From Acidobacteriota bacterium (lineage in GTDB: Bacteria; Acidobacteriota; Thermoanaerobaculia; Multivoradales; UBA5704): DNA of 33,724 nucleotides. Location: NCBI GenBank assembly GCA_040005235.1, contig JBDTZG010000058.1, positions 1-33,724 on the forward strand, written 5' to 3'. This document shows positions 1 to 32,321 of the stretch, piece after piece. The notes under the pieces are model-generated. The model was not told where the DNA came from and did no database searches. It saw nothing but the letters and a program-made list of their open reading frames with translations. Positions within the stretch are counted from its first letter, which is position 1. The number at the start of each line of letters is the position of its first letter. The translations under genes and the position numbers were made by a program.

Positions 1-3000
1 GCGCTCTCCGGCCCGCTCGCGTTTGCTCCGTTCGTCGCGGCGCTCTCCGCCGTCGTGGCCCGCCATGCGAGGTTGCGAACCCGGTTCGGCGAACGGGACG
101 AAAAACCGTTCGCCGAGGTCGTGCCCCCGAGCGCATTCTCGGTGCCCCGGATCGATCTCTCGGGTTTGGCCACGAATGCCGAGGCGGAGCGTCTGGCCAC
201 GGCGGAGGGGCGCCGACCGTTCGATCTCCCGCTCGGACCGCTGCTGCGCGTCACGCTGATTCGCCATGGCCCGAACAGCTACGACGCGCTGTTCGTGTTC
301 CATCACATCGCGACCGACGGCTGGTCGATCTCGGTCTTCTCTCGCGAGATGGCGGAGCTGTATGCCGCTGCGCTCGAAATGCGCCCGGCGCGCCTTCCTT
401 CGCTGCCGATCGAGGTTGCCGATTGGGCGGCCTGGCAGCGCGGTTGGCTTTCGGGCGAGGTCTATTCGCGGGAGCTTTCCTGGTGGCGCGATCGACTCGC
501 CGGGGCGCCGGATGTTTTGGAGCTGCCGGCCGATCGGCCGAGGCCGAGCCGGCGCATTCATTCGGCATCGCATTTCGTCTGGCGCGAGCTGTCGCCCGAT
601 CAGACGGCCGCGATCGGGGCCAGAGCGCGGGCCGCGGGCGCTACTGCGTTCATGGTGCTTCTCGCCGCCTGGGCCGGGCTGCTGTCGCGCCTGGGAGCGG
701 GGGCCGATCTGGTGATCGGTTCGCCGGTCGCGAACCGCAACCGGGCCGAGACCGAAGGGTTGATCGGGTTCTTCGTCAACTCGCTGGCGCTGCGGCTCTC
801 GGCCGACCCCGCGGGCTCGCTCGAAGATCTCCTCGCCGGGGCGCGGACGGCGGCGCTCGGCGCTTACGCGCATCAGGACTTCCCGTTCGAGCGCCTGGTG
901 GCCGAGCTGGCCGGTACGCGCGCCGGTACGGGCGGTGGTACGCGGAAAAACGGCGCGCCGCCGATCTATCAGACCTCGCTGGTGTTTCAGAACCTGCCGG
1001 AGCCGGTGATGCTGCCGGGGCTCGAAACCCGTGTCGAGCCGCTTGCCGGCGGCGGACCGAAGGTAGATCTCGGCCTCGGGGTTTCGCCCGTTCGCGAGGA
1101 CGGAGCGGAGCGCTACGCGGTTCGTCTGGAGATCGATCTCGACCTGTTCGATCCGGCGACCGGCGCGCGGCTGCTCGCCGGATTCGAGGCGATGGCCGAC
1201 GCGCTCGCGACGCGGCCGAAGACGAGGCTCCTCGACGCCGAGTTGCTGGGGCCGGCCGAACGCCATCAGCTGCTCGTCGAAGGGGCCGATCGGGATCACA
1301 ATCTGCCGCCCTGGCGGCTGCACGACTTCCTGGCGCGGAACGCGCGCGAGCGGCCCGACGAGCCGGCGGTCGAATCCGAGCACGAGGCCGGCCGCCGTTA
1401 CACCTGGGGCGAGCTCGACGCGCACACCAATCGCCTCGCCCGCCGGCTCGCGGGCCTGGGAGCCGGGCCGGAGCGCGTGATTGGCGTCTCGCTCGAATGG
1501 TCGGTCGATCGGCCGCTCGCGATCTATGCGATCTGGAAGGCCGGCGCCTGCTACCTGCCGGTCGATCCGGAGCTGCCGGTCGAGCGGCGGGCGCTGCTGC
1601 TCGCCGACTCGGGGGCAGTCGCGTTGATCACGCGCGAGCGGTTCTGGGCCGAGCTGACCACGGCGTCGGATGACCCTGCGGCGTGGGCGCCGCTGCTTCT
1701 TGGTGACGATGGCCTGCCGCTCGCGCCGGGACCGGAGGCCGAGCCTAGCGCGGCGCTGCCGGACAACCTGGCCTACATCCTGTACACCTCGGGCTCGACC
1801 GGTGTGCCGAAAGGAGTGGCGGTCTCTCACGCCCACGCCGCGGTGCACTTGGCGGCCATGGTGGATGTCTATCGGATGGACGCGAGCGATCGGGTTCTCC
1901 AATTCGCCGCCGCGAGTTTCGATGTTTCCATGGAGCAGATTGGCATCGCGCTCACCTCGGGCGCCACCCTCGTGGTGCGCGGACCGGAGTTGCCGGCTCC
2001 CGGCGAGCTGTCGTCCTGGCTCGCGCGGCTGCGGATCACCCAGGCGCATCTCTCGACCGCGATCTGGACCGAGTGGAGCTGGTCCGATCCGGCGAGCGCG
2101 CCGCTGCCGCGCGATCTTCGCGCCCTGATCGTCGGCGGCGAGGCGATGAGCGCCGCGGCGGTCGAGCGCTTCGCGGCCCTGCTCGCGACCCGCTCCGCGC
2201 CGCCGGTGTTGTGGAACGGCTACGGCCCGACCGAAGCGGTGATCGACGCCACCCTGCATGAGGTGCGATCCGGCCCCGCCGGCGGTTCGGGCTCGGTGCC
2301 GATCGGCCGACTGCTGCCGCGGCGCACGGGATTTGTGGCCGACCCCTCCGGCGCCCCCCAGACACTCGGCGGGCGCGGCGAGCTGCTGCTCGGCGGCCTG
2401 CTCGCCCGCGGCTACTTCGGCCGGCCGGATTTGACCGCGGAGCGCTTCCGGCCCGACTCCTCCGGCATCGCCCGGCGGCCCGGCGCTCGGGTCTATTGGA
2501 CCGGCGACCGGGCGCGGGTCATCGCCTCCGGCGCGTTCGAGTTTCTCGGCCGCATCGACCAGCAGGTAAAGATCCGCGGCTTCCGCATCGAGCCAGGGGA
2601 GATCGAGTCGGCGCTCGGCCATCATCCGGCGGTCAAAGAGGCGATCGTGCTCGCGCGCGGCGCCGGGGAGTCGAGCCGGCTGATCGCCTGGTTCCGCCCG
2701 CTCACGGCCGGGGGCAGGGCGATCGACCCGCGCGAGCTGCGGCGTTTCCTTGGCGCCGTCCTGCCGGATTACATGATTCCCGCGGCATTCGTCGAGATCG
2801 CCGAGTGGCCGAAGACCGCCACCGGCAAGGTCGATAAGAAGGCTCTCCCCGAACCGTCGCGGGAGAGCGCGGAGCGGATCTTCGTCGCGTTGCGGACGCC
2901 CGCCGAAGAGATCATCGCGGGGCTCTTCGTCGAGCTGCTCGCGCGCGGCGGCGGCGCAGCGGAGCTGCCGCCGATCGGCGGCGACTCGGACTTCTTCGCG

Positions 3001-3130
3001 CTCGGCGGCCATTCGTTGCTCGCCACCCAGCTCGCCTCGCGCCTGCGTAGGACGTTCGAGATCGAGCTGCCGCTCGCCGATCTGTTCGTCGCCTCGACCG
3101 TCGCCGGGATCGCCGAACGGGTGGCGGCGC
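1..3130 (+). other. Module 1 (partial LCL-type C, A, T); A code DVEHIGGIDK
   Basis: HHIATDGWS; FDVSMEQ, ITQAHL, LIVGGE, NGYGPTEAVID; GGHSL. Code read by manual alignment to GrsA-PheA. Confidence 0.85.
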
Positions 3131-6100
3131 TCGCGGGCGGTCCGGCCGCGCCGCCGGTGGAGCGGATTGATCGGATCGAGCGGGAGGGCTCGGCCCTGCC
3201 GCTGTCGTTCGCGCAGGAGCGCATTTGGTTCCTCGATCGGCTGGAGCCGGGCCGGGCGACCTACAACCTCGGCTTCCGGTTGACCCTCGAAGGGCCGCTC
3301 GTGCCTGCGGCGCTCGGCGTCGCTTTCGGCACGGTCGTTTCCCGGCACGAGCCGCTGCGCACCCGGTACCCGCTGGTCGACGATCGGCCGGTGCAGGAGA
3401 TCCTGCCGCCCGAGGAAGGCGGTTCTGCCGCGCTGCCGGCGGTCGATCTTGCCGGCGCGCTCGCCGAGCCGAGTGCCACCGCCGAGGCTCGGCGGATCGC
3501 AAGGGCGTTTGGCCGCCGCCCGTTCGACCTTGCGCGCGGGCCGGTGCTGCGCGCGGCGCGGCTGCTGCGCGGCGCGGAGATCTCCGACCTGCTGTTCGTC
3601 TTCCATCACATCGCGACCGACGGCTGGTCGACGGCGGTTTTTTCGCGCGAGCTGGTGGCGGCCTACGGCGCCGCGATCGAAGGCCGGGCCGCCCCCCTGC
3701 CCGACCTGCCGATCGACTATGCCGACTGGGCGATCTGGCAGCGCCGCCGGCTCTCCGGAGGCTTTTATGACGCCGAGGTCGCCTGGTGGCGCGAACGGCT
3801 GGCCGGGGCGACCGAGATCGCAGAGCTGCCGATCGACCGGCCGCGCCCTGCCAACCCCCGGCGGCTCGCCGCGGCCCTGCGCCACGATCTGCCGGATTCG
3901 CTGTCGGCGGCGCTCGCAGCCCGGGCGCGGGCTTCCGGCGCGACGCTTTTCATGGCGCTGCTTGCCGCCTGGGCCGGCCTGCTCTCGCGGCTCGCGGGCC
4001 ACCGGGAGGGGAGCGACCTGGTGATCGGCACGCCGGTCGCGAACCGCAACCGGGCCGAGACCGAGCCGCTGATCGGGTTCTTCGTCAACTCGCTCGCCCT
4101 CCGGATTTCGACCGAGTCGCCCTCCGGCCTCACGCTATCGGAGCTGCTCTTGCGGACGAAGAGAGCGGCGCTCGCGGCCTACGAGCACCAGGATCTGCCC
4201 TTCGATCGCCTGGTCGCGGAGCTGGGTGGGGGAGCCCGGTTCGGCCAAGCGCCGCCGATCTACCAGGTGCTGATGGGGTTGCAGAATCAGCCCGAGCCGG
4301 TGCTGCTGCCGGGCCTTCGCACGACGTTCGAAGAGCTGGGCGGCGGTACGGCGAAATTCGATCTCTCCCTGGTGGTGTTGCCGGTGCGCGAGCCCGGCAC
4401 AGGAGGGCACGATCGGCTCGCGGCGATGCTGGAGATCGATCTCGACCTGTTCGAAGTCGCGACCGGCGAACGGCTGCTACGCGGTTTTTCGGCGCTCGCC
4501 GCGGAGCTGGCGGCGCATCCGGGTCGGCCGCTCGCCGAAGCGGAGCTGCTCGACCGGTCGGAGCGCCATCAACTGCTCGCCGAATGGAACGACGCGGAGC
4601 TGGCGCTGCCGCCCGTTCGAGTGCACGATTTTCTAGCTCGGCATGTCCGCGAGCGGCCCGACGAGCCGGCGCTCGAATCTGAGCACGAACCCGGTCGGCG
4701 CTATACCTGGCGCGAGCTGGATGCCCACACCGATCGGCTCGCCCGCCGTCTCGCGTTTTTGGGGGCCGGGCCGGAGCGGGTGGTAGCCGTCTCGCTCCCC
4801 TGGTCGGTCGATCGGGCGCTTAGCGTCTACGCGATCTGGAAGGCGGGCGCCTGCTACCTGCCGGTCGATCCCGACTTGCCGGCCGAACGGCGGGCGTTGC
4901 TGCTTTCCGAGGCTCGTGCGGTCGTGCTGATCGCGAGAAATTTGCCGTCCGCGCTTTCCGGGTCGAGCGCAACGGTGACTCCGCTTCTTCTCAGTAAGGA
5001 GAATGGATTCCCGGCGGCCTTCGGACCGGAAGCGATTCCGCGGGCAGCCTTGCCGGAAAACCTCGCCTACCTCATCTACACCTCGGGATCGACGGGAACG
5101 CCCAAAGGGGTCGCCGTCTCCCACCGCCGCGCGGCGGCACATTTCGAAGCCTCCGCCGGCTTCTACGGCTGGAACGCGAGCGATCGGGTGATCCAGCTCG
5201 GCGCGGCTGGCTTCGACCTTTCGGTCGATCAGATCGGCGTTGCCCTTGCCGCGGGTTCAACACTTGTCGTCCGCGGTCCCGAGCCGCCCGCCCCCGCGGA
5301 TCTCTCCGCCTGGCTGGGAGCGCTTCGGATCACCTGCGCGACGCTGCCGACTCCCCTCTGGGCCGAATGGACGCTCGCGACCGAGCCGCTGCCCAAGACA
5401 CTGCGCCGGCTCTACGCGGGCGGCGAAGCGATGAGCGCCGCCGCGGCCGAACGCTTCCGGAAAAAGCTCGCCGCATCGCCCGATCCCCCGACGATGTGGA
5501 ACGCCTACGGACCGACCGAGGCGGTGGTGGTCGCGACCTGCCACGATCTTGCGACGGGTTTCCTGCCGGAGTCCGGCTCGGTGCCGATCGGCCGCCCTTT
5601 GCCGCGCCGGATCGCCTACGTGCTCGACCCCGCGGGCGATCTCCAGGCGCTCGGCGGGCGCGGCGAGCTGGCGCTCGGGGGGCTGCTCGCGCGCGGCTAT
5701 CTCGGACGGCCGGACCTCACCGCCGAGCGGTTCCGTCCCGATCCCTTCGCCGAGAACGAAGGCGCAAGGGTCTATTGGACCGGCGATCGGGTTCGGCGGC
5801 GGGCCGACGGCGCTTTTGAGTACCTCGGCCGGATCGACCGACAGGTGAAGATCCGCGGCGTCCGCATCGAGCCGGGGGAGATCGAAGCGGCGCTCGCCGC
5901 GCACCCGGGAGTCCAAGAGGCGATCGTGCTCGTGCGCGACGCGCCGGGGATTGGGAAGCGGTTGATCGCGTGGTACGTGCCTCGTCCGGGAGAACCCCCA
6001 TCCTGTCCTTCCCCCGGCTCCAACCCTCCCCCTCCCCGGGGGAAGGGACCCTTCGCCGATTTCAAACGCTTTCTGGGAGGGCGACTTCCCGATTACATGG

Positions 6101-9100
6101 TTCCCACCGCTTTCGTCGAGATCGCGGAGTGGCCGCTCACGCCGAATGGCAAAGTGGATCGGCGGGCGCTGCCCGAGCCGGCAATCGAAGCCGAAGGCCC
6201 GGCGCGGATTGCCCTCTCGACACCGATCGAGGAGATCGTCGCCGGAGCGTTCGCCGAGCTGCTCGGAATCAATGACGCACTCGGCGCGGACGCGGAGTTC
6301 TTTTCGCTCGGCGGCCATTCGCTGCTCGCCACGCAGCTCGCCTCGCGCCTCCGCCGGGCGTTCGGGGTGGAGATTCCCCTCGCCGAGATTTTCGCCGCCC
6401 CGACGGTCGCCGGGATCGCCGGGCGGATCGAAAAGAAGCTCACCGAGGGAAGCGATGTAGAGCCGATCCCACGCATGGCAAGACCCGCGGACGTCTCGCT
6501 GTCGTTCGCTCAAGAGCGGCTCTGGTTCATCGATCGGCTGGAGCCGGGGAACGCCACCTACAACGTCGGGTTCCGGCTCATGCTCCAAGGGCGCTTTTCG
6601 CGCGCGGCGCTCGAAGCGGCGCTCGCCGCCGTCGTCGGGCGCCACGAACCGCTGCGCACCCGCTACGCGCAACCGGGCGACCGCGCGCGCCAGGAGATCG
6701 ATCCTCCTAGTTCGAGTCTTTCGTCTCGCTGGCCGCTGGTCGATCTGACCCTCGACGATCGCTCTTCCGCCGCGGAAGCGGCGCGGATCGCTAAGGCCCT
6801 CGGGCGTCGGCCGTTTGACCTCGCGCGCGGCCCGGTCGTTCGCGCGGCGCTTCTGCGGCGCGGGACGGCGTGCCACGACGCGGTATTCACCTTTCACCAC
6901 ATCGCGATCGACGGCTGGTCGATCGCGATCTTCTCGCGCGAGATCGCCGAGCTGTACGGCGCGGCGCTCGAAGGACGGGAAGCGCACCTTCCCGAGCTGC
7001 CGATCGCCTACTCCGATTGGGCGATCTGGCAGCGAGGATGGCTCGCGGGCGACCGCTACGACCGCGAGCTGTCGTGGTGGCGCGGGCACCTTCTCGGAGC
7101 ACCGGAGGCGATCGACCTCCCCGCCGACCGGCCGCGGCCCGCCGCACCGAAACGCCTGGCGACCCAAGTTCGGCGTTCACTGTCGCCCCATCTGTCGCAA
7201 GCGCTCCGAGCCCGCGCTAACGCCGAATCCTCAACCCTCTTCATGACGCTTTTGACGGCCTGGGCGGGCCTCCTCTCGCGCCTGGGCGCGGGCCGCGATC
7301 TCGTCATCGGCACTCCGATCGCGAACCGCAACCGTGCCGAAACCGAAGGGCTGATCGGCTTCTTCGTCAACTCGCTCGCGATCCGCATCGCGGCGGAAGA
7401 ACACGGCGGCCACGGGGGGCCGCCCCTACGGGTTCTGCTCGGCCGGACGCGGGAGGCTTCGGTGGGGGCGTTCGCTCATCAGGATTTTCCGTTTGAGCGG
7501 CTGGTGGCGGAGCTGGGCGGTGCGCGGGGAGGAAACGTTCCGCCGATCTATCAAGTTTCGTTTGCGTTTCAGAACCTCCCTCCGCCGGTGATGCTACCGG
7601 GACTCGTCACCACGGTCGAAGAGCTGGACGGCGGCACGGCGAAGTTGGATCTGGGGCTGGTGGTGACGCCCCTGTCGGGAGGAGGGCTCGCGGCGCAGCT
7701 GGAGCTGAATCTCGACTTCTTCGATCCGGCGACGGGAGCGCGGCTGCTCGCCGGCTTCGAGCGGATGGCGGCGGAGCTGGCAGCGCATCCGGAGAAGGTG
7801 TTGGCGGATGCCGAGCTACTGGGGCCGGCGGAGCGGCAGCAACTGCTCATTGAATGGAGGGAAGGGGATCTCGCGCTGGATCCTCTTCTGGTGCATGACT
7901 TCATCGCGAGGAACGCGCGCGAGCGGCCGGAGGCGTTGGCTCTGGAGTCGGAGCACGAGCCGGGCCGGCGATATTCGTGGGCGGAGGTCGCGGCGCATAC
8001 GGATGTGTTGGCGCGGCGGCTGGCGGGACTCGGGGCCGGGCCGGAAACGGTGGTGGGGGTTTCGCTGGATCGGTCGGTCGATCGGGTTCTGGCGATGTTT
8101 GCGGTGTGGAAGGCGGGCGCCTGTTATCTGCCGATCGATCCGGAGCTTCCGGAGGAGCGGCGGATGTTGCTGCTTGGGGATGCCGGGGCGGTGGTGGTGA
8201 TTTTGAGGGATGTGCCGTCGGGGGATTTGAGGTGGATAGGCACGGTGGCTCCGCTTCTTGTCATTAAGGAGAGCGGGTTGCCGGTGGACGGCGGGCCGGA
8301 GGAGGAGCCGCGTGCGGCATTGCCGGAAAATTTGGCGTACGTCATCTATACCTCGGGCTCGACGGGGATGCCGAAGGGAGTGGGCATTTCGCATGAAGAT
8401 GCCGCCGGTCACTTCGCGTCCGCGGCGGGTTTCTATCGGATGGATGGGACCGACAGGGTGGTCCAATTCGCTTCGGCGAGCTTCGACGTTTCGATGGAGC
8501 AGGTGGGCGTGGCGTTGGCCTCCGGCGGGACGTTGGTGGTTCGCGGGCCGGAGCTGCCGCCGCCGTTGGAGCTTTCGGCCTGGATGACGCGGTGGGGGAT
8601 TACCAACGCGAACCTGCCGACGGCGGTCTGGAGCGAGTGGAGCTGGTCGGATGCGCAGCTTCCTCGGCAGTTGAGGGTGTTGGTGACGGGGGGCGAGGCG
8701 ATGACTCCGGCGGCGGCGGAGCGGTTTCGAGTGCGGCTGAATGAGATGGACGATCCGCCGGTGGTCTACAACGGCTATGGGCCGACCGAGACGGTGGTGA
8801 CGGCGACCTGTTATGACCTTCGCCATGGACGTCTGCCGGAGTCCGGCTCGGTGTCGATCGGCCGTCTGTTGCCGGGACGTTCGGGGCTTGTGGTGGATGA
8901 GTCGGGCAAGATCCAACCGCTCGGCGGCGTCGGCGAGCTGGTGCTGGGGGGCCTGCTCGCGCGCGGCTATCTCGATCGGCCGGACCTTACCGCCGAGCGA
9001 TTCCGTCCCGATCCCTTTACTGACGCTTCTTTCGGAGCGAGGCTCTATTGGACCGGCGACCGCGTAAGGCAGCGGGGCGACGGCTCTTTCGATTACCTCG

Positions 9101-24900: not shown

Positions 24901-27900
24901 AGAAGCTCGCCGCGAGCGCGAATCCCCCTCGGCTGTGGAACGCCTACGGCCCGACCGAGACGGTGGTGACCGCCACCTGCCAAGACGTGGCGGTCGGCCG
25001 GCTGGGCGAATCGGGGGCGGTCGCGATCGGCCGGGCGCTGCCAGGTCGCTCGGCTTTCGTCGTCGATGCATTGGGCGAGCCGCAGGCGCTTGGCGGGATC
25101 GGCGAGCTGGTGCTCGGGGGATTGCTCGCCCGCGGCTACCTCGACCGGCCGGACTTGACCGCCGAGCGATTCCGTCCCGATCCCTTCGCCGAAAAAGCCG
25201 GCGCGCGGGTCTATTGTACCGGCGACCGCGTCCGGCAGCGGGTCGACGGCTCGTTCGACTACCTGGGGCGCACCGACAGCCAGATCAAGCTGCGAGGAAT
25301 CCGCATCGAGCCGGGAGAGATCGAAGCGGCGCTCGGCCGGCACCGACAAGTCCAAGAGGCGATCGTCCTCCTTCGAGAAACGGGCACGGGCCGGCGGCTG
25401 ATCGCCTGGTACCGGCCTCACGGGGCGCTCGGGGCGCTTGGAGACGGCGGCGAGATCGATCCGGCCGACCTACGCCGCTTCGTCGCCGCCCAACTGCCCG
25501 CCGCCCTGGTTCCCTCGGCGTTCGTCGAAATGGCGGAGTGGCCGCTCTCGCCGACCGGCAAGATCGACCGCCGCGCTCTGCCGGAGCCGATGATCGATCG
25601 CGAGTCCGGCGAGCGTGTCGCCCTGCGCACGCCAACCGAAGAGATCGTCGCCGGTCTTTTCGCCTCGTTGCTTGGGACCGGTCCCGATCTTTCGGCCGAT
25701 GCGGATTTCTTCGCGCTCGGCGGCCACTCGCTGGTTGCAACGCAACTCGCATCGCGATTGCGACGAACGTTCCAGGTCGAGATTCCCCTCGGTGAGCTGT
25801 TCGCCGGCTCGACGGTCGCCGGCATTGCCGGGAGGATCGAGGCGCTCGCGAACATCGGTGCCCCGCCGCCGCCAGCCCTCCTTCCCGTTCCGCCGCGGCC
25901 GGCGGAGATCCCGCTCTCGTTTGCGCAGGAGCGGCTCTGGTTCCTCGACCGCTTGGAGCCGGACCCGGCGACTTACAACACGGGCTTTAGGCTGACGCTG
26001 AACGGCGCCCTGGACGAAGAAGCTCTCGCGGGAGCGTTCCGCGCGTTGATCGCCCGCCATGAGCCGCTGCGCACCCGCTTCGTCCTGGCGGAAGATCGGC
26101 CGATCCAGGAGATCGCTCCGCCCGAGGCGGCGGCGTGCGCATTTCGAATGCCGCGCATCGATCTATCGGCTGCCCCAAGTGCGGTGGAAGCGGCCCGGCT
26201 TGCCCGCGGTGAGGGGCGCCGGCCTTTCGATCTCTCGCGCGGGCCGCTGCTGCGAGTGGTGCGGGTAACTCTGGGTCGGGGAAAGAGCGAGCTGCAGCTG
26301 ATCCTCCACCACATCGCGACCGACGGCTGGTCGCTCGGCGTCTTCGCGCGCGAGCTGGCAGAACTGTACGCCGCCCGGGTCGAGCGCCGAGCGGTGACGC
26401 TGCCCGCTCTGCCGCTTGCGTACGCGGACTGGGCGATCTGGCAGCGCGCGTGGCTCTCGGGTGAGGTCTTCGACCGGGAGCTTGCCTGGTGGCGCGGGCG
26501 CCTGGCGGGTGCGCCGGAGGCGCTCGATCTGCCGTTCGACCATCCGCGACCCGCGCGGCCGGCGGGGCTTGGATGGATGGGCGACGGCGAGCTTTCGGCC
26601 GATCTGGCGAGCCGCCTGGCGGCGCGCGCCCGGAGCGCCGGATCTACCCTCTCGATGGCCCTGTTCGCCGCCTGGGCCGGCCTCCTTGCGCGCCTGGGTG
26701 CCGGGACCGACCTGGTGATCGCGCTGCCGATCGCGAACCGCAACCGGGCGGAGACCGAGGGGCTGATCGGGTTCTTCGTCAACACTCTGGCGCTCCGGAT
26801 CGAGATTCCGGAAAGCGGTGTCACCCTCGGCGGCCTGCTCGCCCGCGTTCGTGAGGCGGCGCTGCCGGCCTACGCGCACCAGGATTTTCCGTTCGAGCGC
26901 TTGGTGGCGAGCGCCGGAGCGCCGCACCCGCAGGTCTCGTTCGCTTTCCAAAACCTTCCCGCGCCGGTGCTGCTGCCGGGGATCGAAACGCAGGTCGAAG
27001 AGCTGGGCGGCGGTGGGGCGAAGTTCGATCTCGGCCTGATCGTGGTGCCTGATGCCGAGGGTCTCCTCACGCGGATCGAGATCTCGCTCGACCGGCTCGA
27101 TCCGGCGACCGGAGCGCGGTTGCTTCGCGGTTTCGAGGCGATGGTTGGGGAGTTGGCGAATGATCCGGGTAGATCGTTGGCGGAGGCGGAGCTGTTCGGA
27201 CCTGCGGAGCGGCATCAGCTGCTCGTCGAATGGAACGACGCGGATCTCGCGCTGCCGAAGGCGTTGGTCCACGATTGGATCGCCCGGCATGCCCGCGAGC
27301 GGCCGGACGATCCTGCGCTCGAATCGGAGCACGAGCCGCACCGCCGCTCTACCTGGCGCGAGGTGGAGGCGCAGGCCGATCGGCTGGCCCGGAGGTTGGC
27401 GGGGCTGGGAGCCGGACCGGAGCGGGTGGTCGGCGTGTCGCTGGAGTGGTCGGTCGATCGGGTGCTTAGCGTCTATGCGATCTGGAAGGCGGGCGCCTGC
27501 TATCTGCCGGTCGATCCGGATCTGCCGGTCGAGAGGAAGCGACTGCTGCTTGCCGATGCGAGAGCGGTGGCGCTTGTGGCCCGAGAGACGTCTGGGGATT
27601 TGGGATGGATCGGGCCGGCGGCGCTGCTTGTCCTCAGTAAGGAGAATGGGCTGCCGGTGGCTGCCGGGCCGGAGGAGGATCCGCGGACGGCGTTGCCGGA
27701 AAACCTTGCGTATCTGATCTATACCTCGGGCTCGACCGGCGTGCCGAAGGGGGTGGCGGTTTCGCATCGGGATGCGACGGGGCATTTTGCGGGCTCCACG
27801 GATTTCTATGGCTGGCGAGCCGACGATCGGGTGATCCTGCTCGGCGCGATCAGCTTCGATCTTTCGGTCGATCAGGTCGGCTGTGCCTTGGCGGCAGGGG

Positions 27901-30900
27901 CGACGCTGGTGGTGCGCGGTCCCCAGATGCCGGCTCCGGCGGATCTTTCGCGGTGGCTGGGCGATCTGCGGATCAGCTGCGCGACGTTGCCGACGCCGCT
28001 GTTCAACGAGTGGACCTTCGCGCCGGAGCCGCTGCCGAAAGCCCTTCGAATGCTCTACGCCGGGGGCGAAGCGATGAGCATCGCGGCGGCGGAGAGGTTT
28101 CGCGGGCGGGCAGGATTGGGGGCGCTGTTGGCCTTGAACGCCTATGGACCCACCGAGGCGGTGGTGGCCGCCACCTGCCACGACTTTCTCAAGGGCCGCC
28201 TGCCGGAGTCGGGCGCGGTGTCGATCGGTCGTTTGTTGCCTCGACGGAGCGCCTATGTGTTGGACGAAATCGGCGTGCCGGTGCCGCTCGGCGGCCTCGG
28301 CGAGCTGGCGCTCGGCGGCCTGCTCGCGCGCGGCTATCTCGATCGGCCGGACCTCACCGCCGAGCGATTCCGCCCCAATCCTTTTACTGACCAATTCGGA
28401 GCGAGAACCTATCGAACCGGCGATCGCGTGAGGAGGCGGGGCGACGGCTCGTTCGACTACCTCGGCCGCATCGACGGCCAAATCAAAATCCGCGGTTTCC
28501 GCATCGAGCCGGGGGAGATCGAAGCCGCGCTCGCCGCCCACTCTCAAATCAAAGAAGCGATCGTCCTCGTCCGCGAGACGCCGCGGATCGGCAAACGCCT
28601 GATCGCCTGGGTGCGGCCGCAGGACGCGCTCGACCCCGGCGAGATCGCCCGCTTTCTCAACCTACGCCTTCCCGCATACATGGTGCCCTCGGCATTCGTC
28701 GAGATCGCCGAATGGCCGCTTTCGCCCTCCGGAAAAGTCGATCGCCGCGCGCTGCCCGATCCCGCCTTCGAAACCGGCGCGCGGTCCTCCCTGCGCACGC
28801 CTTCGGAAGAGATCATTGCGGGTCTGTTCACCGAGCTTCTGGGAGCCACGGACCCTGGCGCGGACTCCGATTTCTTCGCCCTCGGCGGTCATTCGCTTCT
28901 CGCGACGCAGCTCACCTCCCGCCTACGAAGAACTTTCGAGGCCGAGCTTCCCCTCGCCGAGCTTTTCGCCGGCCCGACGGTGGCGGGGATCGCCGAACGG
29001 ATCGATGCGCTCGCCGGCCGGCCCCAGGAGTCCATCGCCCCTCTGGCCAGATCCCCGCGGCCCGCAGAGGTACCGCTTTCGTTCGCCCAGGAGCGTCTCT
29101 GGTTTCTCGATCGCCTGGAGCCCGGAACGGCCACGTATAACGTCGGCTTGAGGCTCACCCTCGGGGGTCCGTTGGTCCCTGCGGCGCTTGCCGCAGCGCT
29201 CGGCGCGCTAGTCGCGCGGCATGAGCCGCTGCGCACCCGGTACGTGATCTCCGGCGATTTGCCGTTCCAGAGAATCGATCCGCCGGGCGGTTTCTCGCTT
29301 CGAGCGGTCGATCTCGAAAGGCTCGATGAAAAGAGCGCCAGCCCGGAAGCCGAGCGCCTCGCGGCGTTCGAGGGCCGCCGGCCGTTCGATCTCGCGCGCG
29401 GGCCGGTCCTGCGTTCGGCCTTGATTCGCCGCGCCCCCGAGCGGCACGAAGTTCTTTTCGTGTTCCACCACATCGCGACTGACGGCTGGTCGATCGGCGT
29501 CTTCTCCCGCGAGCTGGTGGAACTGTATGCCGCCGCCTCGGCACGCCGCCCCTCGCGCCTGCCGCCGCTGCCGATCGAGTACGCCGATTGGGCCCTTTGG
29601 CAACGCACCCTGCTCGCCGGTCAGACCTACGATCGCCAGCTCGCCTGGTGGCGCGAGCGGCTCGCCGGAGCGCCCGAGGTGCTCGACTTGAGTCTAGACC
29701 GGCCGCGCCCGGCTCTGCCGAGACGGCGCGCCCGCACGATGCGTCGCGAACTTTCGGCCGACCTTTCGGCAGCCGTCGCCAGCCGGGCGCGAGCCGCGGG
29801 TGCCACTTCATACATGGTGCTGCTCGCCGCGTGGGCCGGCCTGCTCTCGCGGATGGGGGCAGGGAGCGATCTGGTTATCGGGCTGCCGATCGCAAACCGC
29901 AACCGGAAGGAGACTGAAGGGCTGATCGGATTTTTCGTCAACTCGCTCCCGGTGCGGCTGTCGACCGCGTCCGATCCCACTCTCGCCGAGCTTCTCACGC
30001 GCGCCCGGACCGCGGCGCTCGGGGCCTACGCGCACCAGGATTTCCCGTTCGATCGATTGGTTGCCGAGCTGGGCGGAGTTAGGGGCGGCGGCGTTCCGCC
30101 GATCTACCAGGTGTCGCTGATGTTTCAGAATCTGCCCGAACCGGCGATGCTGCCGGGTCTCCGGACTACGGCCGAGGAGCTGCGCGGTGGCCTCGCGAAG
30201 ATCGACCTGGGGCTCGCGGTGGTGCCCTTGCGCGAAGCGACGGGCGATCGGCTCGCGGCCCTCTTGGAGCTGAATCTCGATCTGTTCGACCCGGCGACCG
30301 GCGCGCGGCTGTTGCGCGGCTTCGAGGCGATCCTGGGGGAGGTTGCGGCGCACCCAGAGCGCGCCCTCGGAGAAGCGGTGCTGATCGGGGCGCCGGAGCG
30401 GCACCAGTTGCTCGCCGAATGGAACGACCGGGATCTCGCGCTCGCGCCGCGGGTGATTCACGACTGGATTGCGCGGCACGCGCGGGAGCGGCCGGACGAT
30501 CCGGCTCTCGAATCGGAGCACGAGCCGGGCCGGCGGTATTCGTGGCGGCAAGTCGCCTTTCACACGGATCTGTTGGCGAGAAGACTCGCAGGGCTCGGGG
30601 TGGGTCCCGAGAGAGTGGTGGGCGTGGCGCTCGAACGGTCGGTCGATCGGGTGCTCGCGATGTACGCGATCTGGAAAGCGGGTGCCTGCTATCTGCCGGT
30701 CGATCCGGATCTGCCTGTGGAGCGGCGGGCGCTGATGCTTGAAGATGCGCGGGCGGTCGTGCTGATCGCCAGGGATTTAACGCCGGATCTTTTGGGTTTG
30801 AGCGGAACGGTTGAGCCGCTTCTTCTCAGTAAGGAGAACGGGTTGCCGATGGACTTCGGACCGGAGGGGATTCCGCGAGCGGTCTTGCCGGAAAACCTTG

Positions 30901-32321
30901 CGTACATGATCTACACGTCGGGCTCCACCGGGGTGCCGAAGGGGGTGGCCGTCAGCCACCGGCACGCGGCGGGGCATTTCGCGGCGGCGGCGGGCTTCTA
31001 CGGAATGGATGCGACGGATCGGGTGGTGCAGTTTGCCGCCGCGGGTTTCGACGTGTCGATGGAACAGGTGGGAGTGGCCTTGGCTTCGGGAGGAACTCTC
31101 GTCGTGCGCGGGCCGGAGCTGCCGCCGCCGCTGGAGCTTTCGGCGTGGCTGACGCGGCACAGGATCACGAACGCGAACCTGCCCACCGCCGTCTGGACCG
31201 AGTGGAGCCGTTCGGAGGCGCCGCTGCCCAAGGACCTGCGCGTGCTGGTGACGGGCGGCGAGGCGATGACTCCCGCGGCGGCGGAGCGGTTCCGAAAAAG
31301 GCTCGCCCAGATGGACGATCCGCCGGTTGTTTACAACGGCTACGGGCCGACCGAGACGGTGGTCACCGCCACCTGCTACGACCTTCGTTACGGGCGCCTG
31401 CCTGAATCCGGCGCGGTGACGATCGGCCGACTTCTGCCTGGGCGCACCGGGATCGTGGTGGACGAGTTAGGGGAGATCCAACCGCTCGGCGGCATCGGCG
31501 AGTTGGTTTTGGGCGGCCTGCTCGCGCGAGGCTATCTCGATCGGCCGGACCTTACCGCCGAGCGATTCCGCCCCAACCCCTTACCAGACGCTTTTTTCGG
31601 AGCGAGGGTCTATGGGACCGGCGATCGCGTCCGCCAGCGGGGCGACGGCTCGTTCGATTACCTAGGTCGCACCGATGCCCAAATCAAGATCCGCGGCTTC
31701 CGCATCGAGCCGGGAGAGATCCAAGCGGCACTCAGCCTACATCCGGCAATCCACGATGCGATCGTCCTCGCCCGCGAAGTACTCGGCGCAGGTCCGCGGC
31801 TGATCGCCTGGTACCGGTCTTCCGCTGAATCGACCGCCGCCGACCTGCGCGCCTTCCTCGCTGCACGGCTACCGGCCTACATGGTCCCCGCGGCGTTCGT
31901 AGAGGTCCTGGAATGGCCGATCTCGGCGACGGGAAAAATCGATCGCCAGGCGCTTCCCGAACCGGCGCGCTCTACCGGTACCGAACGGACCCCGCCGCGG
32001 ACGGCGATCCATCAGGTGATCGCCGATCTTTGGCGCGAGGCGCTGCCGGAGGCGGGGGAGGACCTGGCGATCGAAGACAACTTCTTCGAGCTGGGCGGCC
32101 ACTCTCTCCTCGCGGTGGGACTCGCCTCGAAGGTGGCCGCGAGCTTCCAAGTCGAGCTGCCGCTCAAGCGCCTGTTCGAGGCGCCGACGGTCGCAGGCCT
32201 CGGAGCCGCGGTCCTCGCCGCGGAGTCGCGTCAAGGCCAAAGCGAGAAGATCGCGCGGGTGTTGCTGCGAATGAAGAGCCTGTCGCCCGAAGCGAAGCGC
32301 GACAGGCTCGCATTGGGCTGA
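12996..32321 (+). CDS. Multimodular non-ribosomal peptide synthetase NRPS-2, 6441 aa: (C-A-T)x6-tail, no TE
   Basis: GTG 12996 overlaps the NRPS-1 stop (GTGA, 4-nt overlap). The C1 motif MSFGQEALWF follows 15 residues later. Six C, A and PCP motif sets are present (GGHSL at 16086, 19299, 22509, 25719, 28884, 32094). Stop TGA 32319-32321. The start codon is inferred. Confidence 0.95.
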   Translation: MNTIELTPRVENRAPMSFGQEALWFLSKLAPESRAYHLCGAARVVSPCDAERLERAFAALSERHPVLRTTFGEGSDGKPEQRIGSGAGVVFSREIAEDAEALNALLARHLDASFDLERGPLVRAGLITAGGETVLWLAAHHLVADFWSLAVMLRDLGRAYATGDEIETEGGPQLSYAEWARWQRERTAGETGQRELAVWKEILAGELPRLELPTDRPRRAKVTWVGGSVDVFVGAEATRRLGRIARGAKSNLFSGLLAAFQAFLSRLSGQDDLIVGTPTTGRFGARVDTQVGYFVNPVPVRADLSGDPSFVDLLARQKPTIEGALALQAYPFSRLAEEIQPERDPGRSPIFDAMLAYEKARGGEGFWGFALGLAGTQVDLGGLALESLRVEPSGSPFDLSLAVSEVGGGLAGSLRFSSELFDRATIERWAGWLVRWIEGAAAEPELRLSDLPLLSPLERQELRLESEPPAVAFASSALVHDLLARHARERPGELAVESEHEPGRRYTWGEAAAHTDRLARRLAGLGAGPEKVVGVSLERSVDRVLSIYAIWKAGACYLPVDPELPAERRALLLSDAGAVVVIARAMPSKGAGWIGSAAPLLLSKDRGLPVDGGPEGEPRAALPENLAYVIYTSGSTGVPKGVGISHRDAAGHFAAAAGFYGMDSTDRVVQFASASFDVSMEQVGVALASGGTLVVRGPELPPPLDLSDWMTRWRITNANLPTAVWTEWSRAVDPLPKDLRVLVTGGEAMTPAAAERFRRRMARMERPPVVYNGYGPTEAVVTATCFDLADLAEGDRPDSGSVPIGRLLPGRSGAVVDRTGVAQPFGIPGELVLGGLLARGYLDRPDLTAERFRPDPLTDKFGERVYRTGDRVRQRGDGTIEYLGRIDHQIKIRGVRIEPGEIEAALDDHPGVKDSIVLAREDPNAPNAGKRLIAWYRPIPDEAVTAADLRQFLAARLPQALVPAAFVEVADWPVGPTGKIDRRALPEPENDGAGAIWIAPRTPTEQIVAGLFTELLGTSAPGAEADFFALGGHSLLAAQLVSRLRRAFGVEVPLGELFAGSTVAAIAERIDARAGAPQAPPLLRIAQSPEAALSFGEERLWFLDRLDPGRATYNIGFRLALGGPLDSEALAGALREVIARHSPLRTRYADREGRPYATIPPPESAWRMPFVDLSTAISTERAKAEAARIAEGEGRRPFDLARGPLLRASLVRRSADLHDSLYVFHHIATDGWSLGVFSRELAELYGAAVEGRSAKLPELAVEYADWAAWQRGWLSGEVYERELSWWRERLSGAPEVLDLPLDRPRSSQKNSQGRRSRWVRRELSAELTEAIAARSRAAGSTPFMVLLAAWAGVLSRLGAGTDLVLGTVVANRNLPEIEGLIGFFVNSLAVRISAEGEPTLGELLERTRAAALGAYAHQELPLDRLVAELGGGARWGGVPPLYQASLVLQNLPEPVLLPGLSTAIESLDGGVAKLDLSLVLSPIREGGTERLAAELELNLDLFDPATGARLLAGFERMAAELAALPEKALADAELLGPAERHQLLIEWREGDVAVPPLLMHEWIAKHARERPAALALESEHEPGRRYSWFEVAAHTDRLARRLAGLGAGPEGVVAVSLERSVDRVLAMFAIWKAGACYLPVDPELPLERRALLLEDARVVVVMARDVTSGEGGWIGSVTPLLISKESGLPVDAGPEWEPRAAVAENLAYVIYTSGSTGVPKGVGVSHRHAAGHFAAAVGFYRMDATDRVVQFASASFDVSMEQVGVALASGGCLVVRGPELPPPLELSGWMARWGITNANLPTAVWTEWSRSETPLPRCLRVLVTGGEAMTPTAAERFRKALVEMENPPVVYNGYGPTETVVTATCYDLAVGKLNDSGAVSIGRLLPSRTGFVVDPEGRPLPLGGIGELALGGLLARGYLDRPDLTAERFRPDPFTDKAGERLYRTGDRVRQRGDGTFDYLGRIDSQIKIRGFRIEPGEIEAALARHPVVQEAIVLAREIPNLGLTLIAWVRPLAAFDSNELRRYLAARLPSYMVPAAFVEIAGWPLTPTGKIDRRALPDPSFESNAGRIALRTPTEEIVAGLFTELLGVAEIGVEDDFFSLGGHSLLATQLASRIRKTFDVEFPLGELFAAARVAVIAERIDAFSGGPIAPPLKRRKASGKENEGELSFAEERLWFLDRLEPGTATYNVGFRLALDGPLAFAPFVAALSAVVARHARLRTRFGEREGKPFAEADFPRVFPVPRIDLSAIESPTEALRLAAAEGRRPFDLARGPLLRVALLRHAADRHDALFVFHHIVTDGWSISVFSREMAELYAAAIEKRPALLPSLPIEVADWAAWQRDWLSGEVYLRQLAWWRERLAGAPEVLDLPVDRPRPALAKSPSWLVRRELPSALFSSVVARSRAAGATPFMLLLAAWAGLLSRLGAGRDLVIGAPIANRNRAETEGLIGFFINSLALRISIPAEESLGALVERTREAALGAYAHQDFPFDRLVAELGGGRGVKVSPIFQVSLVFQNLPEPVLLPGLTTAIEPLGGGVAKLDLSLLLSPVREREQERLSALLEINLDLFDPATGARLLRGFEAMVGEGVAHPERSLADAELLGQPERHQLLLEWKGKNLDLPPILVHDWIAKHALERPDALALESEHEPGRRMTWAEVATHTDVLARRLAGLGAGPEKVVAVSLERSIDRVLAIYAIWKAGACYLPVDPELPAERRAWLLSHAGAVVLMARAIPSEMTGWIGTVASLLLSKESGLPVDFGPEEDPRAALPENLAYVIYTSGSTGVPKGVGISNRNAAGHFAAACGFYRMDSTDRVVQFASASFDVSMEQVGLALASGGTLVVRGPELPPPLELSAWMTRWGITNANLPTAVWTEWSWSDAPLPRELRNLVTGGEAMTPAAAERFRLRLAEMDPPPVVYNGYGPTETVVTATCYDLRYGRLPESGSVSIGRLLPARTGWVVGETGEVQALGGIGELVLGGLLARGYLDRPDLTAERFRPNPLTDASFGERLYWTGDRVRQRGDGSFDYLGRTDYQIKIRGFRIEPGEIESALGQHRQVKEAIVLAREPAGISGAGQRLIAWVRPLVGLPIDASELRRFLSSRLPKYMVPWAFVEIAEWPLTPTGKIDRGALPDPAAESGGRIALRTPTEEIVAGLFAELLGVSNPGADADFFVLGGHSLLATQLASRLRTTFAAEIALAELFAGSTVAAIAGRIDARAGRPQAPPLLRTVRSGEVELSFGQERLWFLDRLEPGRATYNVGLRLTLEGAFEPPAFDAALQRIVERHAPLRSRFGERDGKPYAAIEPAMALDLPCIDLSAIQSDVEAVRIAQAEGRRLFNLARGPVLRTTLVRRALDRHDALLVFHHIGTDGWSLGVFSRELAELYGAAVERRPAILPALPIEYADWAAWQRGWMAGEVYDAQLAWWRERLSGAPESLELPADRPRPLASPRRPVAVLRRELPHDLSKALAARARSSGSTPFMALFTSWAALLTRLGAGDDLVIGTAVANRNRAETEGLIGFFVNSLAIRIATNGPSSFVELLSRVREAALSSYAHQDFPFDRLVAELGGVRGGHAPPIYQVSMVFQNLPEPALLPGLATTFEEIGGETAKLDLALTVLPTRAPDEGLSAILELNLDLFDPATGTRLLAGFEAMARELAEHPERRLAEVELLGRAERHQLLIEWNAAECASAPKRIHDFLFRNASERPEGSALESEDPAGRRYSWAELDAVTGRLARKLAGLGAGPERVVGVSLERGVDRQVAILSIWKAGACYLPVDPELPRERRSLLLRDAGAVVLVLRGETSEGLEWIGSVAPLLLSKEGGLPVDHGPEGEPRAAVPENLAYLLYTSGSTGVPKGVAVTHCDAAEHFGAAARFYDLGADDRIVQFAEASFDVSMEQLGLALVCGATLVVRGPEMPAELPAWLDWLGITDANLPTAVWNEWAFSDAPLPEKLRVLVVGGEAMTPAAAARFREKLAASANPPRLWNAYGPTETVVTATCQDVAVGRLGESGAVAIGRALPGRSAFVVDALGEPQALGGIGELVLGGLLARGYLDRPDLTAERFRPDPFAEKAGARVYCTGDRVRQRVDGSFDYLGRTDSQIKLRGIRIEPGEIEAALGRHRQVQEAIVLLRETGTGRRLIAWYRPHGALGALGDGGEIDPADLRRFVAAQLPAALVPSAFVEMAEWPLSPTGKIDRRALPEPMIDRESGERVALRTPTEEIVAGLFASLLGTGPDLSADADFFALGGHSLVATQLASRLRRTFQVEIPLGELFAGSTVAGIAGRIEALANIGAPPPPALLPVPPRPAEIPLSFAQERLWFLDRLEPDPATYNTGFRLTLNGALDEEALAGAFRALIARHEPLRTRFVLAEDRPIQEIAPPEAAACAFRMPRIDLSAAPSAVEAARLARGEGRRPFDLSRGPLLRVVRVTLGRGKSELQLILHHIATDGWSLGVFARELAELYAARVERRAVTLPALPLAYADWAIWQRAWLSGEVFDRELAWWRGRLAGAPEALDLPFDHPRPARPAGLGWMGDGELSADLASRLAARARSAGSTLSMALFAAWAGLLARLGAGTDLVIALPIANRNRAETEGLIGFFVNTLALRIEIPESGVTLGGLLARVREAALPAYAHQDFPFERLVASAGAPHPQVSFAFQNLPAPVLLPGIETQVEELGGGGAKFDLGLIVVPDAEGLLTRIEISLDRLDPATGARLLRGFEAMVGELANDPGRSLAEAELFGPAERHQLLVEWNDADLALPKALVHDWIARHARERPDDPALESEHEPHRRSTWREVEAQADRLARRLAGLGAGPERVVGVSLEWSVDRVLSVYAIWKAGACYLPVDPDLPVERKRLLLADARAVALVARETSGDLGWIGPAALLVLSKENGLPVAAGPEEDPRTALPENLAYLIYTSGSTGVPKGVAVSHRDATGHFAGSTDFYGWRADDRVILLGAISFDLSVDQVGCALAAGATLVVRGPQMPAPADLSRWLGDLRISCATLPTPLFNEWTFAPEPLPKALRMLYAGGEAMSIAAAERFRGRAGLGALLALNAYGPTEAVVAATCHDFLKGRLPESGAVSIGRLLPRRSAYVLDEIGVPVPLGGLGELALGGLLARGYLDRPDLTAERFRPNPFTDQFGARTYRTGDRVRRRGDGSFDYLGRIDGQIKIRGFRIEPGEIEAALAAHSQIKEAIVLVRETPRIGKRLIAWVRPQDALDPGEIARFLNLRLPAYMVPSAFVEIAEWPLSPSGKVDRRALPDPAFETGARSSLRTPSEEIIAGLFTELLGATDPGADSDFFALGGHSLLATQLTSRLRRTFEAELPLAELFAGPTVAGIAERIDALAGRPQESIAPLARSPRPAEVPLSFAQERLWFLDRLEPGTATYNVGLRLTLGGPLVPAALAAALGALVARHEPLRTRYVISGDLPFQRIDPPGGFSLRAVDLERLDEKSASPEAERLAAFEGRRPFDLARGPVLRSALIRRAPERHEVLFVFHHIATDGWSIGVFSRELVELYAAASARRPSRLPPLPIEYADWALWQRTLLAGQTYDRQLAWWRERLAGAPEVLDLSLDRPRPALPRRRARTMRRELSADLSAAVASRARAAGATSYMVLLAAWAGLLSRMGAGSDLVIGLPIANRNRKETEGLIGFFVNSLPVRLSTASDPTLAELLTRARTAALGAYAHQDFPFDRLVAELGGVRGGGVPPIYQVSLMFQNLPEPAMLPGLRTTAEELRGGLAKIDLGLAVVPLREATGDRLAALLELNLDLFDPATGARLLRGFEAILGEVAAHPERALGEAVLIGAPERHQLLAEWNDRDLALAPRVIHDWIARHARERPDDPALESEHEPGRRYSWRQVAFHTDLLARRLAGLGVGPERVVGVALERSVDRVLAMYAIWKAGACYLPVDPDLPVERRALMLEDARAVVLIARDLTPDLLGLSGTVEPLLLSKENGLPMDFGPEGIPRAVLPENLAYMIYTSGSTGVPKGVAVSHRHAAGHFAAAAGFYGMDATDRVVQFAAAGFDVSMEQVGVALASGGTLVVRGPELPPPLELSAWLTRHRITNANLPTAVWTEWSRSEAPLPKDLRVLVTGGEAMTPAAAERFRKRLAQMDDPPVVYNGYGPTETVVTATCYDLRYGRLPESGAVTIGRLLPGRTGIVVDELGEIQPLGGIGELVLGGLLARGYLDRPDLTAERFRPNPLPDAFFGARVYGTGDRVRQRGDGSFDYLGRTDAQIKIRGFRIEPGEIQAALSLHPAIHDAIVLAREVLGAGPRLIAWYRSSAESTAADLRAFLAARLPAYMVPAAFVEVLEWPISATGKIDRQALPEPARSTGTERTPPRTAIHQVIADLWREALPEAGEDLAIEDNFFELGGHSLLAVGLASKVAASFQVELPLKRLFEAPTVAGLGAAVLAAESRQGQSEKIARVLLRMKSLSPEAKRDRLALG
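13035..16215 (+). other. Module 5 (divergent C, A, T); A code DVENVGGVTK
   Basis: HHLVADFWS at 13413-13439; FDVSMEQ, ITNANL, LVTGGE, NGYGPTEAVVT; GGHSL. Confidence 0.85.
16270..19430 (+). other. Module 6 (C-A-T); A code DVENVGGVTK
   Basis: HHIATDGWS; same pocket residues as module 3; GGHSL. Confidence 0.85.
19490..22640 (+). other. Module 7 (C-A-T); A code DVENVGGVTK
   Basis: HHIVTDGWS; same pocket residues as module 3; GGHSL. Confidence 0.85.
22690..25850 (+). other. Module 8 (C-A-T); A code DVENVGAVTK
   Basis: HHIGTDGWS; FDVSMEQ, ITDANL, LVVGGE, NAYGPTETVVT; GGHSL. Confidence 0.85.
25910..29015 (+). other. Module 9 (C-A-T); A code DLDTYGAVAK
   Basis: HHIATDGWS; FDLSVDQ, ISCATL, LYAGGE, NAYGPTEAVVA; GGHSL. 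Confidence 0.85.
29070..32207 (+). other. Module 10 (C-A-T, last module of NRPS-2); A code DVENVGGVTK
   Basis: HHIATDGWS; same pocket residues as module 3; terminal-type PCP EDNFFELGGHSLLAV. Confidence 0.85.
32208..32321 (+). other. C-terminal post-PCP tail of NRPS-2, putative docking element
   Basis: AVLAAESRQGQSEKIARVLLRMKSLSPEAKRDRLALG, same length as the NRPS-1 tail. Confidence 0.65.

Follow-up and report, generated by a model that had tools for sequence, protein, structure and literature searches.

The window analysed here, a stretch of 33,724 nucleotides that is the entire contig C34 in the genome of an uncultured soil acidobacterium (G000; 6.22 Mb in 140 contigs, G+C ~69%), encodes modular nonribosomal peptide synthetase (NRPS) proteins, the products of two adjacent genes called A and B below. 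Our best explanation, to which we give an even chance, is that these are two separate subunits without a thioesterase (TE) domain, each making an acyl-capped, six-residue basic chain and each docking in trans through a C-terminal tail. All of the evidence is computational, and the architecture is a variant of a known NRPS kind. The proposed route is as follows. The starter condensation (C) domain of each gene would N-acylate the first residue, using an acyl-CoA or an acyl carrier protein (ACP)-bound acyl donor encoded elsewhere. The six modules of each gene would then extend the chain, mostly with the basic residue predicted from a specificity code of the DVEN type. Each chain would be an all-L, strongly cationic acyl-hexapeptide held on the last thiolation (T) domain. 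The basic tail would serve as a docking element for the acidic N-terminal stretch of gene 1 on contig C118, and the chain would be handed for release to the C118 line (genes 1–4), which is initiation-less and TE-bearing. Gene C, which lies on contigs C79 and C83 and has the same head and tail, would be a third paralogue.

The window proteins are type I NRPSs with repeated C-A-T modules (A, adenylation) and intact core motifs. Pfam models find 10 Condensation, 10 AMP-binding and 10 PP-binding domains, plus AMP-binding_C, in the two open reading frames (ORFs); the SGSTGxPKG, HHxxxD and GGHS motifs are each present in 10/10 modules, and A7, A8 and A10 are intact in the alignment. ORF1 (1..12999, plus strand) is open at its 5′ end and by Pfam comprises four C-A-T modules, the tail and a stop. 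ORF2 (12996..32321, plus strand), which is gene B, begins with GTG and by Pfam comprises six C-A-T modules and the tail. An earlier sequence-only reading had counted ten or more NRPS modules, and the count stands: ten C-A-T modules (4 + 6) lie in the window, and contig C86 supplies two more to ORF1. An exact 55-nt overlap joins the 3′ end of C86 to the 5′ end of C34, another joins C79 to C83 in the same orientation, and exact links of this length connect many contig ends of this assembly. C86 contributes the starter C domain and two further modules to ORF1, making gene A, of which ORF1 is the 3′ two-thirds (modules 3–6). The window modules are mutually 70–85% identical in DNA, and thus are true diverged copies rather than the result of assembly collapse.

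All window modules are encoded on the plus strand. In gene A, the C domain of module 3 (1..3201) is truncated by the contig start and is followed by A and T; its specificity code is DVEHIGGIDK. Module 4 (C-A-T, 3202..6498) has the code DLDTYGAVVK, and modules 5 (C-A-T, 6499..9723) and 6 (C-A-T, 9724..12840) both have DVENVGGVTK, module 6 ending in a divergent FFELGGHSLLAV-type T domain. In gene B, module 1 (12996..16271), a starter C-A-T module, and the C-A-T modules 2 (16272..19493) and 3 (19494..22694) share the code DVENVGGVTK; the remaining three, also C-A-T, are module 4 (22695..25913; DVENVGAVTK), module 5 (25914..29075; DLDTYGAVAK) and module 6 (29076..32162; DVENVGGVTK), the last again with a FFELGGHSLLAV-type T domain. 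With the C86 portion included, the six modules of gene A read DPALHGQVVK, DVEN, DVEH, DLDT, DVEN and DVEN, the first A domain of the gene being the one coded DPALHGQVVK. Gene C has four modules, DAFFTGMVVK and then DVENVGGVTK three times. DVENVGGVTK is found in 10/16 modules of genes A, B and C.

The sequence-only reading took the window for one assembly line, with at least ten modules and five or six identical residues in a row. This is probably wrong. The counted run crosses the boundary between ORF1 and ORF2, and the C domain at the head of ORF2 is of the starter type. The longest run within one protein is four residues (modules 1–4 of ORF2, the fourth with a Gly322Ala variant). Nor do the sister genomes point to one assembly line, as each of the two genes has its orthologue by itself, at a different locus. 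Both genes end in a T domain and a docking-like tail, with no TE. The six-module gene A orthologue stands alone at G003:C53, beside the same kynureninase and ClpB-like neighbours, and the six-module gene B orthologue stands alone at G001:C3. The four-module gene C orthologues are likewise alone (G003:C7, G001:C133 and G002:C23). Since the orthologues stand alone in these same-genus genomes, each gene is reckoned to be a self-contained unit. The A–B tandem is particular to G000. Given the starter-type head, the head and tail shared by three paralogues and the lone orthologues, two separate acyl-hexapeptidyl chains appear more probable than a single chain of at least 10 residues. The more likely chains would be roughly X-R-R′-Z-R-R for gene A and R-R-R-R-Z-R for gene B, with R, R′ and Z standing for the residues of the DVEN, DVEH and DLDT pockets, respectively.

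In the colinear alternative, the ORF1 tail feeds the head C domain of ORF2, and the product is a linear, all-L 12-mer released by an unlinked enzyme; the window would encode 10 of its residues, and five identical basic residues would stand in a row. The gene arrangement speaks for it: ORF2 comes directly after ORF1 on the same strand, and its GTG start overlaps the ORF1 stop as GTGA at 12996, as expected for colinear subunits. So do the head C domain, which retains HHxxxD and is LCL-like (the type that joins L residues) by score against solved structures, and the T domain before each tail, a distinct subtype that fits a special downstream partner. On the other hand, the same head C domain opens both gene A and gene C, neither of which has an NRPS gene upstream, and the head clusters with starter-type domains, as detailed below. 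In addition, ORF2 has only ~15 residues, with a net charge of 0, ahead of its C1 motif and is without the acidic docking stretch of other downstream subunits in G000. These points, together with the single orthologues in G003 and G001, make the 12-mer unlikely in our judgment.

Genes A, B and C open with the same unusual C domain (MSFGQEALWF, HHLVADFWS), which is ~80% identical among the three and present in exactly three copies in G000. In gene B it extends over 13041..14400 (plus strand; the end is approximate). It is the first domain of the protein, as the HH motif is placed 140–194 residues from the frame start in genes A, B and C and in four same-genus orthologues. To place it, we used an in-genome tree of 81 C domains, selected from 94 hidden Markov model (HMM) hits as covering at least 380 model positions; the 13 short hits that were dropped include three epimerization (E) domains. 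In this tree the three head C domains are a clade of their own (support 1.0). The clade joins, with support of 0.99, three C domains located on C91, C117 and C132 behind an AMP-binding domain of the fatty acyl-AMP ligase (FAAL) type and a PP-binding domain, in each case within the same ORF by Pfam. The combined group is set apart from 68 LCL-like C domains and from the clade of a C domain that follows an E domain. Head and FAAL-ACP-linked C domains share an Asp-Phe variant of the HHxxxDG motif. Outside the genus, the nearest homologue of the head C domain is 49% identical, in genome G008, and has an ACP ahead of it in the same ORF. Based on the clustering with FAAL-ACP-linked C domains, we infer that the head is a lipoinitiation-type starter C domain.

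Two observations weigh against that assignment. First, compared with solved structures, the head C domain scores 241 bits with Txo2 and 161 bits with TycC6, as against 44 bits with CDA-C1, the sole starter C structure in the comparison. Second, no FAAL, ACP or other acyl-donor gene is found beside genes A, B and C in G000, G001, G002 or G003. Other FAAL-like genes of G000 are located on C56, as a fusion with a lipid acyltransferase, and on C140.

The other ends of the three genes are also alike. Genes A, B and C close with a divergent T domain and a conserved tail of ~50 residues (52 aa, 83% identical). The gene A tail (12841..12996) and the gene B tail (32163..32318), both on the plus strand, each have a net charge of +4 over the last 34 residues and are candidate docking helixes. 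The tail is present in exactly three copies in G000, plus one weak relative on C117, and 36 columns are invariant across nine T-plus-tail sequences. A search of a 5.8-billion-protein collection (proteins of 106–2000 aa) gave six fragments, all ending in the tail. The tail HMM is significant only for the C117 tail (E 1.4e-6), and the idea that the tail represents a generic docking family was dropped for this reason. No TE (PF00975) is encoded on C34, C86, C79 or C83; other NRPS lines of G000 end in a TE.

The C117 relative belongs to the last protein of a FAAL-initiated line (C117:10475-15355, minus strand). That protein has the organization C-T-C-T, with no A domains, and its tail is related to the window tails; it has no TE, and non-NRPS genes come next, including a CHAT-domain gene.

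The candidate recipient, the C118 line, comprises genes 1–4 (153.3–206.0 kb) and has a TE at its end. Gene 1 begins with an acidic, helix-like stretch of ~45 residues with a net charge of −6, to be set beside the +4 of the tails, and continues with C-A-T. No NRPS gene lies upstream of gene 1 in G000, G001 or G006. In G002, the gene 1 orthologue (85% identical) has an orthologue of gene C immediately before it, and G004 has neither the head-C genes nor gene 1. Within G000, the tail-bearing chains without a TE are those of the C117 line and of genes A, B and C, and the C118 line is the only TE-bearing line seen without an initiation module of its own. A tentative proposal, to which we give somewhat less than an even chance, is that genes A, B and C pass their chains in trans to the C118 line.

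Several results count against this handover. The synteny link comes from one genome, G002, and related genomes are not independent observations. The tail HMM missed the tails at the C118 internal junctions and at the C132 junction, the resemblance being one seen by eye. A fold model of T-plus-tail with gene 1 residues 1–60 does speak for docking, since its score of 0.35 is a pass and the best control scores 0.01, but the pass falls in a weak band. The pass mark of the fold model is reached by 116/157 solved complexes and by 2/215 mismatched pairs, and with scores of 0.60 or less it is passed by just 18/157 solved complexes and by both of the passing mismatches. Across the fold-model runs, at least 93% of contacts agree, and the partner pLDDT is at least 55.

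If the handover does occur, genes A, B and C, possibly together with the line on C117, could be interchangeable initiation cassettes that supply acylated polycationic heads of four or six residues and compete for the single docking site of the C118 line, which is a polyketide synthase (PKS)/NRPS hybrid. We consider this extension doubtful. Were it correct, a single organism would produce, by natural combination, a small set of long hybrid lipopeptides with a common body and differing oligo-arginine-like heads.

A simpler view is that each gene stands alone. The acyl-tetra- or acyl-hexapeptide would then be released by a separate hydrolase, for instance the type II TE of contig C73, or by spontaneous hydrolysis, and the tail would be a linker remnant. 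TE-less NRPSs released by a trans-acting hydrolase are known, coelichelin being an example. On C73, an Sfp-type phosphopantetheinyl transferase (PPTase) gene comes immediately after the gene for a free type II TE (C73:5512-7215), and the NRPS genes are scattered amid housekeeping genes, as stand-alone units might be. The C73 TE and PPTase are probably an accessory pair shared by all NRPS lines. A linker remnant is difficult to reconcile with a tail that is basic and so strongly conserved, or with its presence, in related form, in a fourth TE-less line, that of C117. Further, an initiation-less, TE-bearing line does exist and in G002 shows synteny with gene C. For these reasons stand-alone release is quite unlikely in our view, and docking in trans is retained as the preferred explanation of the tail.

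What the chains are made of is addressed by the specificity codes. The codes were read from a MAFFT alignment of the 10 A domains via the anchors FDxS, ITxxxLP, GGEA, NxYGPTE and GKxDR, with an anchor-to-PheA numbering that we take to be correct. The re-extracted list is identical to that of the sequence-only reading, in the order in which the modules are given above, and its statement that every pocket has Glu or Asp at position 239 is borne out in 10/10 A domains (Glu in 8/10, Asp in 2/10). Position 278 is Asn in 7/10, His in 1/10 and Thr in 2/10. As a control, extraction from all 71 A domains of G000 returned codes such as DLFNNALTYK, DVWHISLVDK, DFWNIGMVHK, DILQLGMIWK and DAWQFGLIDK, which, with their amino-acid meanings, we take to be textbook codes. 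A buried Glu at the pocket floor, together with Gly301 and Gly322, would be compatible with a long basic side chain. Of the substrate-specific NCBIfam models, the Lys-activating MxcG model scores highest on the A domain (369.6 bits). Codes with Glu239 are known for non-basic substrates as well, as in the ACV synthetases.

Published codes allow a closer comparison. The excerpted part of a survey of 2051 bacterial A domains gives the Arg consensus as D[AV]ED[IVL]GA[VI][TD]K and reports DVESIGGVTK for Arg/homoarginine and DGEACGGVTK, DGECTGGITK and DGEGSGGVTK for N5-modified Orn (PMC12283262). Among the codes in that excerpt, DVENVGGVTK equals DVESIGGVTK at 8/10 positions (D235, V236, E239, G301, G322, V330, T331 and K517) and the N5-modified-Orn codes at 7/10, and DVENVGAVTK satisfies the Arg consensus at 9/10 positions. 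Acid-lined pockets had been noted before, and these matches, with Arg/homoarginine nearest and N5-modified ornithine next, agree with that description. Set against the Arg/homoarginine code of the same excerpt, the dominant window code has Asn rather than Ser/Asp at 278 and Val rather than Ile at 299. The excerpted N5-modified-Orn codes have the frame D.E..GG[VI]TK in common with the window code but have Gly236 and small residues at 278 and 299, where the window has Val, Asn and Val, and no hydroxylase or acyltransferase gene is present at the window locus. We place somewhat better than even confidence in a DVEN residue that is basic, with Arg-like as the first choice; judged by its code, the DVEN pocket would most likely take arginine or a basic residue close to it, such as homoarginine, ornithine or N5-modified ornithine. 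The DVEH and DLDT pockets are probably specific for further basic residues.

The arginine assignment has points against it. DVENVGGVTK departs from the excerpted Arg consensus chiefly by Asn for Asp278, an Asp that none of the 10 window A domains has, and its 7/10 match to the excerpted N5-modified-Orn codes is close to the figure for Arg (PMC12283262). In an in-genome A-domain tree, 14/14 DVEN/DVEH/DLDT domains form one tight clade with no canonically coded domain inside, and the clade adjoins hydrophobic-type A domains, with no canonical basic code near. G000 also has an intact Lys/Orn N-monooxygenase gene (C20:6926-8341, minus strand; 347–348 bits).

In an alternative with the same architecture, the dominant monomer is non-cationic: N5-hydroxy- or N5-acyl-ornithine, giving a hydroxamate-rich, metal-binding chain, or a neutral polar residue such as citrulline or glutamine. 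The code frame shared with N5-modified Orn, the Asn in place of the Asp278 of the Arg code and the monooxygenase gene are all in its favour. In contrast, the monooxygenase lies on another contig amid housekeeping genes, with no siderophore, NRPS, acyltransferase or formyltransferase partner recognised beside it; standing alone in this way, it was rejected as a partner of the window genes. The match to the excerpted Arg/homoarginine code is also the higher one. Finally, four or five hydroxamate residues per hexapeptide would be more than, to our knowledge, known siderophores use. A non-cationic dominant monomer is accordingly rated as improbable, and the basic, Arg-like residue remains our first choice for DVEN.

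The stereochemistry of the chains can be predicted from the C domains. ORF1 and ORF2 contain no E, methyltransferase (MT), heterocyclization (Cy), oxidation (Ox) or TE domain by Pfam; the first four had already been reported absent. In the in-genome tree, the nine elongation C domains of the window and three on C79/C86 form one clade (support 1.0), nested among the 68 LCL-like C domains (support 0.73), which follow T domains. The clade that contains C132:5871, a C domain following an E domain, is far from them. Against solved structures, the elongation C domains score 168–264 bits with Txo2, DhbF and TycC6 and 81–90 bits with SrfA-C and TycB1. No second N-terminal HH motif, which we take to be the sign of a dual C/E domain, is seen by eye in the window C domains, and dual C/E domains were set aside for this reason.

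The C-domain motifs tell the same story. An LP.DRPR-like motif is present in 10/10 C domains, NRN..E.E.L.GFF.N.L in 9/10 and LSF.(Q/E)ER.WF in 8/9 of those with their N-terminus inside the window. The odd domain among the ten is the ORF2 head, with MSFGQEALWF and HHLVADFWS. That nine of the ten C domains are LCL-like, as the sequence-only reading had it, thus agrees with the tree, in which 9/10 fall with LCL-type domains; its motif NRN.E.E.L.GFF.N.L was one residue short, the true form being NRN..E.E.L.GFF.N.L. Because there is no E domain and the elongation C domains are of the LCL type only, the chains are predicted to be all-L. An all-L product is plausible on these grounds, and so is the polycationic, all-L reading as a whole.

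The C tree has a further deep and separate clade, that of C-like domains lacking HHxxxD (e.g., C132:67311, C132:90713 and C91:27227). Several NRPS subunits on C91 and C132 open with a divergent domain of this kind, with an N-terminus of the form ‘..RLSPQQ..’. With 94 C-superfamily hits and 71 A domains spread over 28 frames, G000 has an extraordinary NRPS load for its 6.2 Mb. The 55-nt overlaps allow chaining of contigs as C91-C55-C65, C84-C132, C86-C34-C39 and C79-C83.

Beyond gene B, the window contains a ClpB-like AAA+ gene (32369..33724, minus strand), tail-to-tail with gene B and continuing on contig C39. The same gene is found after the solitary orthologue of gene A in G003 and after that of gene B in G001, and the gene A tail in G003 ends as the gene B tail of the window does. 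This suggests that a whole six-module gene was gained or lost at the ClpB-like spot via recombination between paralogous last modules. Directly upstream of gene A is a kynureninase gene (C86:~12300-14650, minus strand; 310.8 bits versus an NCBIfam cut-off of 246.4). A tryptophan 2,3-dioxygenase gene is located beside the kynureninase, upstream of the NRPS gene of the locus, in G003 (C53) and G001 (C133). The kynureninase/tryptophan dioxygenase pair is probably housekeeping tryptophan catabolism. Taken together, the flanks of genes A, B and C encode kynureninase, tryptophan dioxygenase, pdxH, a class-V pyridoxal phosphate (PLP) enzyme (below all cut-offs), a ClpB-like protein, SMC and DnaE. These flanking genes were considered as a source of precursors and rejected, as they are housekeeping genes, none of which can be linked to the NRPSs.

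Public contigs from three runs of one study, two of which may be the source of the window DNA, are so repeat-fragmented that they neither back nor contradict the ORF1/ORF2 junction or the C86–C34 join, and no listed piece spans 12.2–13.0 kb. In two of the runs, a piece matching gene B from 13040 on is preceded by the gene A 5′ flank, with the break at ~13034. The presence of the gene A flank on the gene B head is explained by the paralogous heads, which are similar enough to cross-link short-word assemblies.

If the DVEN pocket takes arginine, the products would be acyl peptides with four or five guanidinium side chains per six residues. Oligo-guanidinium chemistry is familiar from synthetic cell-penetrating and membrane-active peptides and is rare in characterised non-ribosomal products. 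The source of this oligo-arginine-like chemistry would be an uncultured Thermoanaerobaculia lineage rich in biosynthetic gene clusters (BGCs). In the excerpted text of a study of another BGC-rich acidobacterial genus, from a different lineage, no MIBiG links are reported for its clusters (PMC9723581), and the excerpt of a further paper mentions the BGC-rich acidobacterial family UBA5704 without, in that excerpt, describing the window system (PMC12818350). Candidatus Angelobacter, a subdivision 1 genus with ~55% GC (PMC9723581), was considered as the source of the window and rejected, because G000 has ~69% GC and a near-identical protein is labelled Thermoanaerobaculia. Three TE-less, paralogous starter subunits sit amid housekeeping genes, and a single initiation-less TE line is found elsewhere; mining cluster by cluster would call each piece an incomplete orphan and would mispredict a decapeptide or nothing. 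If docking in trans is true, the system would be a test case for docking-directed subunit exchange and a source of portable docking parts.

The sequence-only reading did not recognise the cluster as a characterised one, and no match was found here either: the four exact codes and the six-letter prefixes DVENVG, DVENIG, DVENLG, DVEHIG and DLDTYG occur in no paper of the searchable literature. A close relative in design is the PAX synthetase PaxABC of Xenorhabdus, which has a starter C domain, consecutive modules for basic residues, and a T domain with a short docking element. Its seven modules are encoded by three adjacent, colinear genes, with Lys codes and a terminal TE. The window system is like PaxABC in having a starter-type C domain, several consecutive modules for one, presumably basic, residue, and a T domain followed by a C-terminal docking-like element. 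Unlike PaxABC, it has an Arg-like code and no TE, and its three starter subunits are paralogues, encoded at separate loci, whose heads and tails are nearly identical. Xenorhabdus also makes arginine-rich NRPS peptides, such as bicornutin, that are short and Arg-dominated; these are gammaproteobacterial and have their own release chemistry. The FAAL-ACP-C(starter) units on C91, C117 and C132 are of the same head-C clade, whereas no FAAL or ACP is fused to genes A, B and C or lies next to them. Daptomycin-type systems also use FAAL-ACP-C(starter) lipoinitiation. Lastly, the ε-poly-L-lysine synthetase (Pls) makes a cationic homopolymer, and the window product would resemble it as a cationic homo-oligomer; the Pls A domain (7wew) is a mid-ranking match (194.6 bits). 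In Pls, one A-T unit works iteratively and the C-like domains are embedded in the membrane; the window instead has 10 canonical C-A-T modules.

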